From the sequence record PQ724392.1: a DNA stretch of 64,000 nucleotides; one strand, given 5' to 3'. Both the position numbers and the translations under genes were made by a program. The stretch comes from a phage. The notes under the pieces are model-generated. The model did no database searches, was not told where the DNA came from, and saw nothing but the letters and a program-made list of their open reading frames with translations. Shown here piece after piece: positions 49,493-64,000 of the stretch; the first letter of the stretch is position 1; every line of letters starts with the position of its first letter.

Positions 49493-49734
49493 TGAATATA
49501 CACTCGCTGCGCTTCAACCAGACCATCAGAACCCAATTTCAGTTGGGTAAACTGGTCACCACCTTTTAGAGTAATTTTCGGATTAATGACAATCATAAAA
49601 CTGCGTGCAGATTCCTGAATAACTTGCAAAGTCGCAGCAGGGAATCGCTGTGATACGCGGTTAATCATCTCTTGAGCAAATTCCTTCACTTTTTCGTGAA
49701 ACTCTTCAACAGTAATTGGGGTTTCGCTAAGCAT
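49489..49734 (-). CDS. Hypothetical protein (81 aa)
   Basis: ORF with coupled stop/start. Confidence 0.4.
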   Translation of the reverse strand: MLSETPITVEEFHEKVKEFAQEMINRVSQRFPAATLQVIQESARSFMIVINPKITLKGGDQFTQLKLGSDGLVEAQRVYIQ

Positions 49735-50276
49735 CAGATTGCCTCCTGTTTAACTTGTTTAACGATAGAAACTTTTGTGATATCACCTTTGATAATATAG
49801 CAATCTTCTGCAGTACCACGGTTTAACAGGCGTTCTGCTTCGTCTTCCGCATATTCTTTTGACACATGACGAGAGTTAATCTCAATCTTGCCATTTTTAA
49901 CCACAAGCAATTTCCAAACTGATGCAAGTTTTACTGGCACAGGTTCAACTTCTGGCTTAACACCAACTTCCGCCTGGATGAAATATTTGAATTCATCTGA
50001 TAATGGACCAACAGAAACAAACATTGCCCCACGATGCCTGTTCTGCTCGTCAGATATTTTTACCAAATCCACAAAATCATTTTCATCAATCAGACGAATC
50101 TCACAAACTTTTTTACCGCCGCTAACATTATCAGGTAAAATCTTAACTTCAAACGGAGTCATACCGATGTATCCAGCAATTTGGTAATTAGATGCCCATC
50201 CACCAGAGACAAACTGTTTTTTGGCATTTTCAGATACAAATTTGTAAAACTTACCTTCTTCAAAGAAATCGCTCAT
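49734..50276 (-). CDS. Hypothetical protein (180 aa)
   Basis: ORF with ATG start; no recognizable motif. Confidence 0.45.
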   Translation of the reverse strand: MSDFFEEGKFYKFVSENAKKQFVSGGWASNYQIAGYIGMTPFEVKILPDNVSGGKKVCEIRLIDENDFVDLVKISDEQNRHRGAMFVSVGPLSDEFKYFIQAEVGVKPEVEPVPVKLASVWKLLVVKNGKIEINSRHVSKEYAEDEAERLLNRGTAEDCYIIKGDITKVSIVKQVKQEAI

Positions 50277-52961: not shown

Positions 52962-53252
52962 TCATTTGCAACGTTCCTCTTTTAGTTCAGAACGATAATA
53001 ACATAACATACCTTTTTGGTCATGTACATACCTTTTTACATCATTCATCCAAATCCGGAATTCTTGCGATGCTTCAAAAGGCATACCAACCCAGGCTTGA
53101 CCATCAATTACCTTAACTTCCCATTTCTGTTTGTAATCAGCCAATGCAACAGGCCAATTAGGATGAACTTGGATTGTGGGCTCCACAACGGGCTTCTGGG
53201 CACATGAAACGAGTCCAATAGCCAAACATACTGCCATGATAGATTTCATCAT
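52962..53252 (-). CDS. Outer-membrane spanin lipoprotein (o-spanin, PseT.2-like)
   Basis: N-terminal lipoprotein signal with lipobox (MMKSIMAVCLAIGLVSC); about 96 aa; directly downstream of the i-spanin with overlapping stop/start. Confidence 0.7.
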   Translation of the reverse strand: MMKSIMAVCLAIGLVSCAQKPVVEPTIQVHPNWPVALADYKQKWEVKVIDGQAWVGMPFEASQEFRIWMNDVKRYVHDQKGMLCYYRSELKEERCK

Positions 53253-53602
53253 TTGGTGAGCTCCTGGAAGTCCTGGGCGAACTTATCAAAAGACTGATTA
53301 ATCTGTTTTTCAACTAATTTAGGCTTCGCTACCACAACCTTAGTACGTTTTGCATCTGCACGGAGTTTATCATTTTCCTTCTGTAGGAGTTCAACATATT
53401 CCTGACGCTCCTGGTCAAGGAGATTAATTTGATTAATCTGGTCTTTTACTGATTGCAGATTTTTCGCGTTATCTTCTGCAACTTTGGTGACTTCCGCCAC
53501 CGCCGTCTTGAGATTATCTACTTTTGCTTTTAGATAGAAACCACTACCAGCAGTTACTACCAGGGCGAGCATAAGCCCTGCAGTGAGATTACTTATTTGC
53601 AT
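53249..53602 (-). CDS. Inner-membrane spanin (i-spanin, PseT.3-like)
   Basis: 117 aa; N-terminal transmembrane helix followed by charged coiled-coil sequence; paired with the o-spanin as in T4. Confidence 0.7.
   Translation of the reverse strand: MQISNLTAGLMLALVVTAGSGFYLKAKVDNLKTAVAEVTKVAEDNAKNLQSVKDQINQINLLDQERQEYVELLQKENDKLRADAKRTKVVVAKPKLVEKQINQSFDKFAQDFQELTK

Positions 53603-60352: not shown

Positions 60353-60353
<1 letters not shown>
60156..60353 (-). CDS. Hypothetical protein (65 aa)
   Basis: ORF with its start immediately downstream of the td stop. Confidence 0.35.
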
Positions 60354-62129
<1,776 letters not shown>

Positions 62130-62139
62130 TATATTTTCC

Positions 62140-62379
62140 TCACGCTTTCTTGGCAACTTTCCAGTCAGCTTTAAATTGGTCAACGTCAGAGTGGTAAATC
62201 CAGAAACCGGATGAGCTACCATCTTCATAAAGAGGACAACCATCACACTCATCTTTCCAACCCATTTCACACAAAGCTTGTTCAGCTTTTTCCAGAGCTT
62301 CTGGATTGTTACCTTGGATTGTGAAGTACCATTTGCCTTTAACTTCTGAATCTTTGATGCTCTCACGTTGTAATTTCAT
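62140..62379 (-). CDS. Hypothetical protein (79 aa) with a CxxC motif; PeSL-cassette cargo
   Basis: Preceded by TGTACA-N17-CATAAT and the conserved leader CCATACTGAGTTAACAACTAAAACACTGGAGAATAAAATG; contains ECDGCP. Confidence 0.45.
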   Translation of the reverse strand: MKLQRESIKDSEVKGKWYFTIQGNNPEALEKAEQALCEMGWKDECDGCPLYEDGSSSGFWIYHSDVDQFKADWKVAKKA

Positions 62380-62420
62380 TTTATTCTCCAGTGTTTTAGT
62401 TGTTAACTCAGTATGGGACC

Positions 62421-62449
62421 ATTATGTCATAGCCCCATTTGGTTGTACA
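62421..62449 (-). promoter_or_regulatory. PeSL-like early promoter upstream of ORF 62140-62379
   Basis: On the - strand: AAAAAAGTAGTGTACA-N17-CATAAT plus the conserved leader. Confidence 0.55.
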
Positions 62450-62457
62450 CTACTTTT

Positions 62458-62712
62458 TTAAATTTTATCAAGCCATTTGCCAAGTTTAATCATTTCCTTG
62501 TTGGCTTTTTCCATACTTCTGAACTTAACTAATAAAGGATATGTATCTACACCCATAACAAGATTGGTTGCAAGACTGTGCTCACCCACAAGCCATAATG
62601 AGTAGGTTTGAACATCCAGACCATAATTTCTGTCTTTATGCAAACGCACACCCATCACTTCAAATTGTTCACTGGCTTTTTCCACTGCATCCAGGAAATC
62701 ATCTTTAGTCAT
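62458..62712 (-). CDS. Hypothetical protein (~84 aa)
   Basis: Track ORF begins at TTG; start moved to the internal ATG at 62712, directly downstream of the preceding stop. Confidence 0.4.
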   Translation of the reverse strand: MTKDDFLDAVEKASEQFEVMGVRLHKDRNYGLDVQTYSLWLVGEHSLATNLVMGVDTYPLLVKFRSMEKANKEMIKLGKWLDKI

Positions 62713-62713
62713 G

Positions 62714-63079
62714 TTAAATTCCAAAGGTAGCTTTAATCAAGGCAACAACTTCTGCCGCATTTTTGTGATTTACCTGTACATGAATGGTTTGGGTATCAAC
62801 AGCAGGAGCATCACCATCAACTTCCATGAAATGTTGGAATTCCCATTCACCAAGTTCAAAGTACTCATCAGCATCACCCATACTATTCAGGATGGTGCCA
62901 TCTTTCATTTCAACTTTTTCAACAAAATAATCACCTTCAATATAACACATATCCAGGACTTTGAAGGAATTACCATGTTGTTCCATCAACTTGACCATAC
63001 ACGAATTATCATCAGGACTACCAGCGATGAATTGTTTTTTGGCAGCGGGGTCTAATACGTAAAATTTACCAGTTTCCAT
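62714..63079 (-). CDS. Hypothetical acidic protein (121 aa), paralog A of the 63429-63791 gene
   Basis: Shares ME.GK.Y, DDYFEL/DEYFEL and a C-terminal (I/V)..L.KA(F) pattern with the 120-aa ORF about 700 bp upstream. Confidence 0.45.
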   Translation of the reverse strand: METGKFYVLDPAAKKQFIAGSPDDNSCMVKLMEQHGNSFKVLDMCYIEGDYFVEKVEMKDGTILNSMGDADEYFELGEWEFQHFMEVDGDAPAVDTQTIHVQVNHKNAAEVVALIKATFGI

Positions 63080-63138
63080 TTTAATTTCCTCATATTCAAT
63101 TGAGGGAACATATTATCATGTTCCCGTTTGTTTGTATA

Positions 63139-63366
63139 CTAAGCTTCAATCAAATTCATATAAAATTTAGTGTCTTCAGGGTACATACCATCACAATATT
63201 CATTTTGCATAAAGCGGGTAATGTCTTCAAGAGGACCTTGGACTTCAATTTGAATACCAAAGACTTCAGTATCTTTAATGTAAGTCATACACAAAGAAGG
63301 ATAACGATTGCGGATAACTTCGTAAGTGTATTCAAAATCAACGATATCAATATTAACCTTAGCCAT
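63139..63366 (-). CDS. Hypothetical protein (75 aa)
   Basis: ORF preceded by a GAGGAAAATAAAATG leader and a hairpin/promoter-like element at 63385-63425. Confidence 0.4.
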
Positions 63367-63428
63367 TTTATTTTCCTCATGTAGTTGATAGGTCTATAAT
63401 ATCTCAACCATAGACCCGTTGTAAACTG

Positions 63429-63791
63429 CTATTTGAAAGCTTTTTGTAGAAGTTCAATGATTTGGTCGACGTTATTAGCATCCACAACACAATTAATAGA
63501 AACCGCCCCAGAAGGTGTTTTTGCACAATTAGAGTATTCGCGGAAGCAATAAAACTCTTCTTCGCTAAGTTCAAAATAATCATCACCCATGCCATCATCA
63601 TTATAGATTGCACCATTAGCACAAATGATTTCGGTTACATAATCATAGCCGTCTGCACTTGATATTGATTTAACTTCAAACCAACCGCCATTTTCTTGGA
63701 TGATGTCGACCATACTGGCATTCGATGAACTAATATCAATGAAAGATTTAATACGGTGTGGATTGAACTCATATTTTTTGCCGATTTCCAT
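63429..63791 (-). CDS. Hypothetical acidic protein (120 aa), paralog B; PeSL-cassette cargo
   Basis: Preceded by TGTACA-N17-CATAAT and a GAGGAAATAAAAATG leader; paralogous to 62714-63079. Confidence 0.45.
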   Translation of the reverse strand: MEIGKKYEFNPHRIKSFIDISSSNASMVDIIQENGGWFEVKSISSADGYDYVTEIICANGAIYNDDGMGDDYFELSEEEFYCFREYSNCAKTPSGAVSINCVVDANNVDQIIELLQKAFK

Positions 63792-63829
63792 TTTTATTTC
63801 CTCAGTTGTTATCAGTAGTTGATGGAATC

Positions 63830-63858
63830 ATTATGCCTTAGCTCAAAGGACTTGTACA
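63830..63858 (-). promoter_or_regulatory. PeSL-like early promoter upstream of ORF 63429-63791
   Basis: On the - strand: AAAAAGTAGTGTACA-N17-CATAAT; terminator hairpin immediately upstream at 63880-63895. Confidence 0.55.
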
Positions 63859-63870
63859 CTACTTTTTGAA

Positions 63871-63895
63871 AATAAAAAAGGGACCCGAAGGTCCC
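63871..63895 (-). terminator. Terminator immediately upstream of the 63830-63858 PeSL promoter
   Basis: GGGACCCGAAGGTCCC hairpin, identical to those at 27475 and 39438, with a T-run on the - strand. Confidence 0.55.
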
Positions 63896-64000
63896 CTTAT
63901 ATTAAAGGCCAGCCAGAAGGTCATCAAGACCATCATCGGAAGGCTCTGGAGTGCTTGGAGCAGTCGCAGTGCGTTCAGACTTAGCAGGTTTGCTGGAAGT

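Follow-up and report, generated by a model that had tools for sequence, protein, structure and literature searches.

In a 64,000-nucleotide stretch of phage DNA (sequence record PQ724392.1; the whole stretch is hereafter the window), two open reading frames near the right end, copies A and B, are genuine paralogs that belong to the family of the T4 early gene frd.2 and diverged long ago, and the relationship between them is statistically secure. The two copies were joined by recombination, and the arrangement A - frd.3 - B is one permutation of several. Our preferred reading, which we consider probable, is that A and B are functional proteins encoded in shuffled cassettes, non-essential and early, with a barrel that binds a partner and a specificity that has diverged between the copies. 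The pair itself is already known, having been deposited and annotated as frd.2a/frd.2b, and its novelty is low, since the Pfam family is a long-standing one, GenBank already contains these very proteins, and in Shigella phage SP18 the two genes have been named.

The frd.2 pair and its family

At its right end, the window covers the td - frd - gene 32 segment of a T4-like coliphage. Every gene there lies on the minus strand, and in transcriptional order they are 32 - A - frd.3 - B - orf84 - frd.1 - orf113 - frd - td. The genes that concern us are:

63429-63791, minus strand: copy A, a T4-type frd.2 (120 aa, net charge -12; "frd.2a" in the SP18 record)
63139-63366, minus strand: frd.3, 75 aa, between A and B (PF05798 Phage_FRD3, E = 1.6e-34)
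62714-63079, minus strand: copy B, of the second Frd.2 subfamily (121 aa, net charge -13; "frd.2b" in the SP18 record)
62458-62712, minus strand: orf84 (phrog_4423, E = 1.2e-47)
62140-62379, minus strand: frd.1 (DUF5417)
61788-62129, minus strand: orf113 (phrog_8592)
61210-61791, minus strand: frd
60353-61213, minus strand: td

A preliminary description of this DNA, made from the letters alone, had singled out the reading frames of A and B, and both are indeed present. Its estimate of about 30% identity was close to the mark, as BLASTP with compositional adjustment aligned the two over their full length with 38/120 identities (32%; E = 2e-16), and all of the shared motifs it quoted (ME.GK.Y, D(D/E)YFEL, E.EF and the C-terminal (I/V)..L.KA.F) were found in the alignment. 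The 75-aa frame between the copies, which it had called unrelated to them, is Frd.3. It had also cautioned that the alignment might lose its significance once the abundance of acidic residues was corrected for, and this did not happen: the local BLOSUM62 score of 142 compares with 28.0 +/- 5.3 (maximum 54) for 2000 shuffles of one sequence that preserved its acidic composition, and 0/2000 shuffles reached 142. The similarity of A and B, lying 21.6 standard deviations above these composition-keeping shuffles (z = 21.6), is thus not a composition artefact, and chance or compositional similarity is excluded.

Both copies match the Pfam family FRD2 (PF03197) over profile positions 1-95 of 96, A with E = 1.2e-35 (122.5 bits) and B with E = 7.5e-33 (113.6 bits), where the curated gathering cut-off is 29 bits, and both match phrog_622 (A, E = 1.3e-41; B, E = 1.5e-32), a family labelled "unknown function" in PHROGs. 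T4 Frd.2 (NP_049852) has the same early-gene context, the same gene 32 ... frd neighbourhood and the same small, acidic, single-architecture form (112-138 aa) as A and B, both of which lie between gene 32 and frd of a T4-like genome. Copy A is 82.5% identical to T4 Frd.2 from end to end, whereas copy B is only 35.6% identical to it and belongs to a clade of its own. The gene order also differs, in that T4 has a single copy after frd.3 (32 - frd.3 - frd.2 - frd.1 - frd), whereas in the window the T4-type copy A precedes frd.3 and it is B that occupies T4's frd.2 position.

The closest counterparts of the pair are proteins QIN95627 and QIN95629 of MN01 (99.2% identical to A and 97.5% to B, respectively) and frd.2a/frd.2b of SP18 (YP_003934876, 97.5% identical to A; YP_003934875, 92.6% identical to B), which were named as a pair although, unlike in the window, no frd.3 stands between them. 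Naming is inconsistent between records, the "frd.2b" of JS10 being an A-type gene. Over bases 61700-64000 the window is 98.4% identical to MN01, an Escherichia phage of the genus Gaprivervirus, and it matches many JS98/SP18/VR-type phages at 94-96% identity.

From about 5.8 billion proteins searched, 69 members of the family were recovered, and the root of their neighbour-joining tree separates a B clade from an A clade. The A clade includes T4, the window's A, the JS98-type A', the S16-type and RB69-like groups and, at a greater distance, a third group; JS98/SP18/VR7-like coliphages are the main carriers of the B subfamily. When 1.84 billion cluster representatives were searched exhaustively with a profile, about 40 real relatives emerged, all of 112-138 aa and of a single architecture; matches in long proteins, many of them to short stretches, look like low-complexity artefacts. 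The small additional yield, all of it within this narrow range of lengths, indicates that the Frd.2 family is small, phage-restricted and of one architecture. The family is confined to T4-like phages, and the earlier view of A and B as diverged paralogs in an accessory cluster adjoining frd, which is hyperplastic, is supported. Family members occupy 969 places in 888 records of the phage collection (81 extra), which puts two copies in about 9% of these records, and B-type genes at 60% identity or more occur in 67 records. An independent pair, its copies directly adjacent, is present in a metagenomic contig (L022) of an unrelated lineage. Elsewhere in the window, a weak match of the family HMM to the reading frame at 53249-53602 proved spurious, as this is an Rz-like spanin.

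Spacer motifs and the shuffling of cassettes

Four spacers of the region (32-A, A-frd.3, frd.3-B and orf84-frd.1) each hold an early-promoter-like site and a stable hairpin, together with a conserved GAGG leader, and a GAGG ribosome-binding site lies 7-8 nt 5' of the ATG in both A and B. There is no spacer before orf84, which begins 1 nt after the preceding gene, or before orf113, which follows the gene ahead of it within 10 nt. The elements in these spacers are:

63877-63898, minus strand: intrinsic terminator hairpin of gene 32, 5' of A, GGGGACC-UUCG-GGUCCC followed by a U-run (terminator scan; RNA fold of the spacer, -27.6 kcal/mol)
63830-63858, minus strand: early-promoter-like site TGTACA-17-CATAAT, 5' of A (promoter scan), a member of the AGTAGTGTACAA-N17-ATAAT motif
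63390-63425, minus strand: PeSL-like motif 5' of frd.3, TTTACA-18-TATTAT (63396-63425; 10/12 hexamer matches), overlapping an 11-bp hairpin (63390-63417; -13.2 kcal/mol, z = -2.1)
63104-63138, minus strand: degenerate PeSL-like motif 5' of B, TATACA-17-TAATAT (63110-63138), overlapping a 9-bp hairpin GGGAACAUG/UAUGUUCCC (63104-63125; -11.9 kcal/mol, z = -3.05)
62421-62449, minus strand: early-promoter-like site TGTACA-17-CATAAT, 5' of frd.1, with an overlapping 10-bp hairpin, at the downstream boundary of the B-orf84 cassette

The AGTAGTGTACAA-N17-ATAAT motif occurs six times in the window, all on the minus strand, against an expectation of 0.32, and a 50-nt repeat family (D1) has three copies, in the spacers 5' of frd.1, A and B, at 100%, 76% and 62% identity. 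Such elements have the architecture of the PeSLs (promoter-early stem-loops) of T4-type phages, mobile regulatory cassettes that have been described as driving the shuffling of modules (Arbiol et al. 2010, PMC2839356; Comeau et al. 2014, PMC4122927). As in PeSLs, sigma-70-like early hexamers are combined with a stem-loop, the combination recurs in spacers bordering the small, variable ORFs of a hyperplastic region, and close relatives differ in the order of the ORFs flanked by it. The motif in the frd.3 spacer matches the T4/PST PeSL consensus TTTACW..TAYWAT (PMC4122927), except that its hexamers are 18 and not 17 nt apart. That only the upstream copy has a PeSL, as had been proposed, does not stand, since the spacer before B contains a degenerate version of the 50-nt motif (62%) and the 9-bp hairpin. 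These are kept in relatives, the TATACA-17-TAATAT site being conserved 5' of B in three of them (L005, L006 and L009). With 8/12 hexamer matches the site before B falls below the scan threshold, so its promoter activity is uncertain; for the spacer motifs as a group, promoter function is predicted from consensus and conservation. With such signals before each of them, A and B would each be expressed from a cassette of its own, within the hyperplastic stretch that runs from gene 32 to frd.

That A, B, frd.3 and orf84 are mobile relative to one another is seen from their occurrence in at least five orders among phages whose flanking genes are 90-99% identical. The arrangements read were:

32 - A - frd.3 - B - orf84 - frd.1: the window, MN01 and VR20
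32 - A - B - orf84 - frd.1: SP18
32 - B - A' - orf84 - frd.3 - frd.1: L004 and L007
32 - A' - orf84 - frd.3 - B - frd.1: L009
32 - B - orf84 - frd.3 - frd.1: L008 and L010, with B only
32 - A' - orf84 - frd.3 - frd.1: L017, with an A-type copy only
A replaced by an 85-aa barrel-only remnant: VR25 (L006)

In L004 and L006-L010, frd.3 lies elsewhere than between the two copies. Synonymous divergence tells a similar story of exchange: the window's A differs from T4 frd.2 by a dS of 0.56, compared with 0.8 to more than 3 for its neighbours against T4, whereas against the A' of L007 its dS is saturated and that of B and frd.1 only 0.11-0.38. The low dS of A to T4, together with this saturation, indicates that the T4-type allele has been exchanged horizontally. 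The pair had been described as divergent tandem paralogs, but A and B are no local tandem duplicates: they fall into two deep clades and their cassettes occur singly or paired in several orders, and a recent local tandem duplication is ruled out by these clades, by the dS values and by the permutations. Recombination, plausibly at the repeated promoter/stem-loop motifs, would have shuffled, lost and replaced cassettes among close relatives, an interpretation drawn from the gene orders rather than from mapped breakpoints.

A gene that adjoins members of the family is orf84. Its ATG is 1 nt past the stop codon of B, a gap which makes it probable that orf84 is translationally coupled to B, and it starts 1 nt after an FRD2-family gene (A, A', B or the T4-type) at 10/10 junctions read. 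By coordinates, it also lies within a few bases of the stop of a T4-type frd.2 in two further genomes (L012 and L019), and in L010 the adjacency is by coordinates only. A distant contig (L035) has, 5' of its orf84 homolog, an ORF without detectable similarity to FRD2. Identity of orf84 stays at 90-94% between genera for whose other genes it is about 65%, and orf84 has no match in Pfam, NCBIfam or the PDB. It is conceivable, though we rate it as rather improbable, that the Frd.2 family consists of diversified early binders of host factors or immunity proteins, their specificity set by clade-specific surface residues, that form with orf84 a two-gene module in which orf84 moves between frd.2 alleles; if so, a phage with A plus B-orf84 has two specificities. 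The nearby orf113 has a homolog labelled a "PemK/MazF toxin" in one GenBank record, a label without support from Pfam or NCBIfam.

Selection on the two copies and the arms-race question

Orthologs of both copies show the signature of constraint. By the Nei-Gojobori method, the median dN/dS was 0.15 for B (10 orthologs, 45 pairs) and 0.13-0.15 for A, and the values for neighbours were 0.16 for frd.3, 0.12 for frd.1, 0.06 for orf84 and 0.17 for gp32. Ratios of about 0.15 imply that A and B are both maintained by purifying selection and are functional, and gene-wide positive selection among orthologs was not seen. Among T4's close relatives, frd.2 is nevertheless a local divergence hot spot. In three of these phages (L018, L019 and L021), gp32, frd.3, frd.1 and frd are 88-100% identical to those of T4, with a dS of 0.05-0.30, compared with 67-75% identity and a dS of 0.59-0.92 for frd.2, whose dN/dS is 0.30-0.36 against 0.02-0.36 for the flanks among T4's close relatives. 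This pattern indicates allele replacement combined with a somewhat relaxed or diversifying constraint.

A comparison of the two clades reveals 30 alignment columns that are identically conserved and 20 that are conserved within each clade but different between them, with some charge reversals; the switch positions include E39/K40, K41/L42, A58/K59, R84/L85, D109/A109, E113/A113 and K117/A117. These 20 clade-specific differences, several of which reverse the charge, suggest that the partner of A, or the variant of that partner, is not the one to which B binds. The view that the two copies do the same job, and that the pair is a neutral by-product of shuffling or an effect of dosage, could draw upon the core residues and fold common to both and upon the relatives that manage with only B (L008 and L010) or only an A-type gene (L017 and T4). 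We regard it as very improbable, as identity has fallen to 32%, the 20 positions are conserved differently in each clade, purifying selection acts on both copies where they co-occur, and a separate tandem pair exists in the unrelated lineage of L022.

The same switch positions have to be weighed with respect to an anti-defence arms race, an idea that goes back to the preliminary description and in which A and B would inhibit different host immunity proteins or alleles and two copies would widen the host range. The pair consists of early genes in a hyperplastic region, its presence, absence and copy number vary, frd.2 is a divergence hot spot (67-75% amino acid identity against 88-100% in the flanks), and its lack of a phenotype on laboratory strains (PMC12152347) agrees with such a role. 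The strong acidity of A and B is also in keeping with it. Several known inhibitors that mimic nucleic acid are strongly acidic. However, dN/dS is about 0.15 in each ortholog group, the same as for gp32 and frd.3, and the divergence at the hot spot is accompanied by a raised dS, which fits allele replacement better than rapid adaptive change. In addition, a search of PADLOC with A, B, frd.3, orf84, frd.1 and orf113 gave no match at E <= 1, so that there is no similarity to the defence and anti-defence families it covers. On balance, we consider an arms race doubtful as the explanation for the pair, and the reading of A and B as early proteins of diverged binding specificity is retained.

A predicted barrel and its candidate partners

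AlphaFold2 monomer models, built with a 68-sequence alignment of the family, reached a pLDDT of 89.3 for A and 90.7 for B and share the order of elements b1-a1-a2-b2-b3-b4-short helix-b5, a low-confidence linker at about residues 90-100 and a C-terminal helix, with strands at 6-9, 37-46, 49-57, 62-64 and 83-85. In the predicted architecture, the N-terminal part is a small SH3/Tudor-like beta-barrel into which two helices are inserted, and a flexible linker joins it to a short strand-helix unit at the C terminus. A Foldseek search of BFVD with these models matched VR7 GoF (E = 6.8e-6), T4 MotB.1 (E = 1.8e-4), Frd.2 proteins and the 85-aa protein of VR25, and there were weak PHROG matches to goF families. 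That Frd.2, GoF and MotB.1 share an N-terminal "LSm-like"/SH3-like barrel had been reported (Kim et al. 2025, PMC12152347), and the Foldseek matches to GoF and MotB.1 reproduce that report independently. The models of A and B have the N-terminal five-stranded bent barrel expected of this superfamily, and GoF, MotB.1 and the Frd.2 proteins are alike in being early, non-essential and specific to T4-like phages as well as in this predicted barrel. Against predicted viral structures, Foldseek matched many uncharacterised proteins besides, encoded by T4-like phages and frequently several to a genome, which suggests that the barrel superfamily may be larger than these three proteins. A third, distant barrel relative lies in the window at 49734-50276. 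By sequence, no solved structure in the PDB was found for the family, the best matches being insignificant ones to kinases (E >= 0.03), and the one NCBIfam match, to an RNA polymerase alpha subunit, was noise, scoring 15 bits where the cut-off is 523.

The one hypothesis in print for this superfamily is RNA-related and rests on GoF(D25Y), a variant that stabilises the RNA of a gene 41 leader reporter post-transcriptionally (PMC12152347). Extended to the window (following the hypothesis of Kim et al. 2025), it would have the LSm-like barrel of A and B bind RNA as Hfq does, with the two paralogs acting on different phage or host transcripts to tune their stability or translation, and the structural kinship to GoF and MotB.1 that Foldseek reproduced speaks in its favour. 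Wild-type GoF and MotB.1, the wild-type proteins assayed, were inactive in the reporter, however, and the authors describe D25Y as a gain of function by which the surface potential becomes more positive (PMC12152347). The charge of A and B is another difficulty, as each copy has a net charge of -12 to -13, and the pI is typically 4.0-4.7 in the family and about 4.4 for the copies. Of the family's 13 invariant and 13 near-invariant residues, most are hydrophobic or acidic, and only K5 and H100 are basic. No match to the LSM, Hfq or SM-ATX families of Pfam was found at E <= 1 and none in NCBIfam, the sequence search of the PDB gave no Sm or Hfq protein, and no Hfq/Sm chain was among the top 60 fold matches of either model. 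Given so strong a net negative charge and conserved basic residues limited to one lysine and one histidine, the binding of a protein is likelier than an Hfq-like binding of RNA, and we judge RNA binding to be unlikely.

Returning to our preferred reading, A and B would be non-essential accessory proteins of early host takeover, and the predicted barrel of each may bind a macromolecular partner, which would be a protein and possibly a basic, nucleic-acid-binding one. What is known of T4 frd.2 is compatible with a dispensable role. Its amber mutants plate normally, with an efficiency of plating (EOP) of about 1 (PMC12152347), and in the T4 CRISPRi-ART screen its "Fit" call was marginal (0.83, p = 0.027, against 3.29 for gene 32), although it was the sole gene of unknown function to be called "Fit". 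The combination of purifying selection and normal plating of ambers would also fit a modulatory role of a housekeeping type.

The practical value of the pair lies in the fact that frd.2 was called "Fit" in T4 CRISPRi-ART, if marginally, and that it belongs to a phage-specific barrel superfamily. With two deeply diverged copies in one phage, and relatives that carry one or the other, the frd.2 genes of these phages offer a convenient natural experiment on the partners of Frd.2 proteins and on their specificity.

Exchange of alleles at frd.2

In three close relatives of T4, L018, L019 and L021, frd.2 is only 67-75% identical to the gene of T4 (dS 0.6-0.9, dN/dS 0.30-0.36), whereas identity to the T4 counterparts is 88-100% for the adjoining gp32, frd.3, frd.1 and frd (dS 0.05-0.3). 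Allele replacement is locally concentrated at the frd.2 locus in T4's close relatives. For copy A of the window phage, its T4-type frd.2 (63429-63791, - strand), dS is 0.56 against T4 frd.2 but saturated against the A-type gene found in JS98-like sister phages (L007). As the genes flanking copy A display the reverse of this pattern, the comparison indicates that copy A was acquired horizontally, as a T4-type allele.

Small genes of the gene 32-frd region

Two small window genes of this region were compared with homologs or profile databases:
62458-62712, - strand: orf84 (phrog_4423), directly 3' of FRD2-family (Frd.2 Pfam family) genes
61788-62129, - strand: orf113 (phrog_8592)

The orf84 neighbourhood was compared in the window and in L001, L004-L010, L012, L017 and L019. 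At all 10 junctions read, the upstream gene belongs to the FRD2 family and orf84 starts 1 nt past its stop codon, with the same spacing whether that paralog is copy B (the second FRD2-family clade) or A', the A-type frd.2 gene of JS98-type relatives. In L012 and L019, the upstream gene is a T4-type frd.2, an adjacency taken from coordinates only. Searches of Pfam and PDB with orf84 returned no match. Its dN/dS, 0.06, is the lowest of the cluster. Between Tequatrovirus loci and the window phage, orf84 is 90-94% identical, against about 65% for neighbouring genes. Either orf84 could act as a functional partner of the Frd.2 proteins, or it could be a passenger, moved by recombination at the conserved 3' end of frd.2.

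GenBank record PQ341120 gives the homolog of orf113 the label "type II toxin-antitoxin system PemK/MazF family toxin". Since no NCBIfam model matched at E <= 1 and no Pfam model was significant, that label looks unreliable.

In T4, the 138-nt frd.2-frd.1 spacer (L003 2506-2643) holds a 22-codon hydrophobic ORF, MFAPYIMAAVMLVCLYLLIKAC, preceded by GGAG and missing from the feature table shown for that interval; the window has no counterpart.

Barrel relatives and a second FRD2 pair

Three further window ORFs were considered as FRD2 relatives or their neighbours:
49734-50276, - strand: 180-aa ORF near pseT (phrog_5804)
53249-53602, - strand: Rz-like spanin (phrog_739)
52962-53252, - strand: 96-aa lipoprotein-like ORF downstream of the Rz-like spanin

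The N-terminus of the 180-aa ORF reads EEGKFYKF..AKKQFV, and the ORF matched the FRD2 family (hhalign probability 80%, E 1.4e-5), goF phrog_2980 (E 3.6e-9) and phrog_622 (E 2.8e-4). This N-terminus is distantly related to the Frd.2/GoF barrel, and the ORF is a third superfamily member within the window. The weak HMM match of 53249-53602 to FRD2 was spurious; 52962-53602 is an ordinary spanin pair.

In phage VR25, the position expected for copy A is occupied by an 85-aa protein (L006 2678-2935) consisting of the FRD2 barrel domain only, with a TM of 0.92 to the copy B model over the barrel, which shows that the FRD2 N-terminal domain is able to stand alone. A short metagenomic viral contig (L022 641-1451) carries two diverged, directly adjoining FRD2 genes in the order 32 - FRD2 - FRD2 - frd.1 - frd. 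This pair is independent, and FRD2 double copies therefore arose or assembled more than once.
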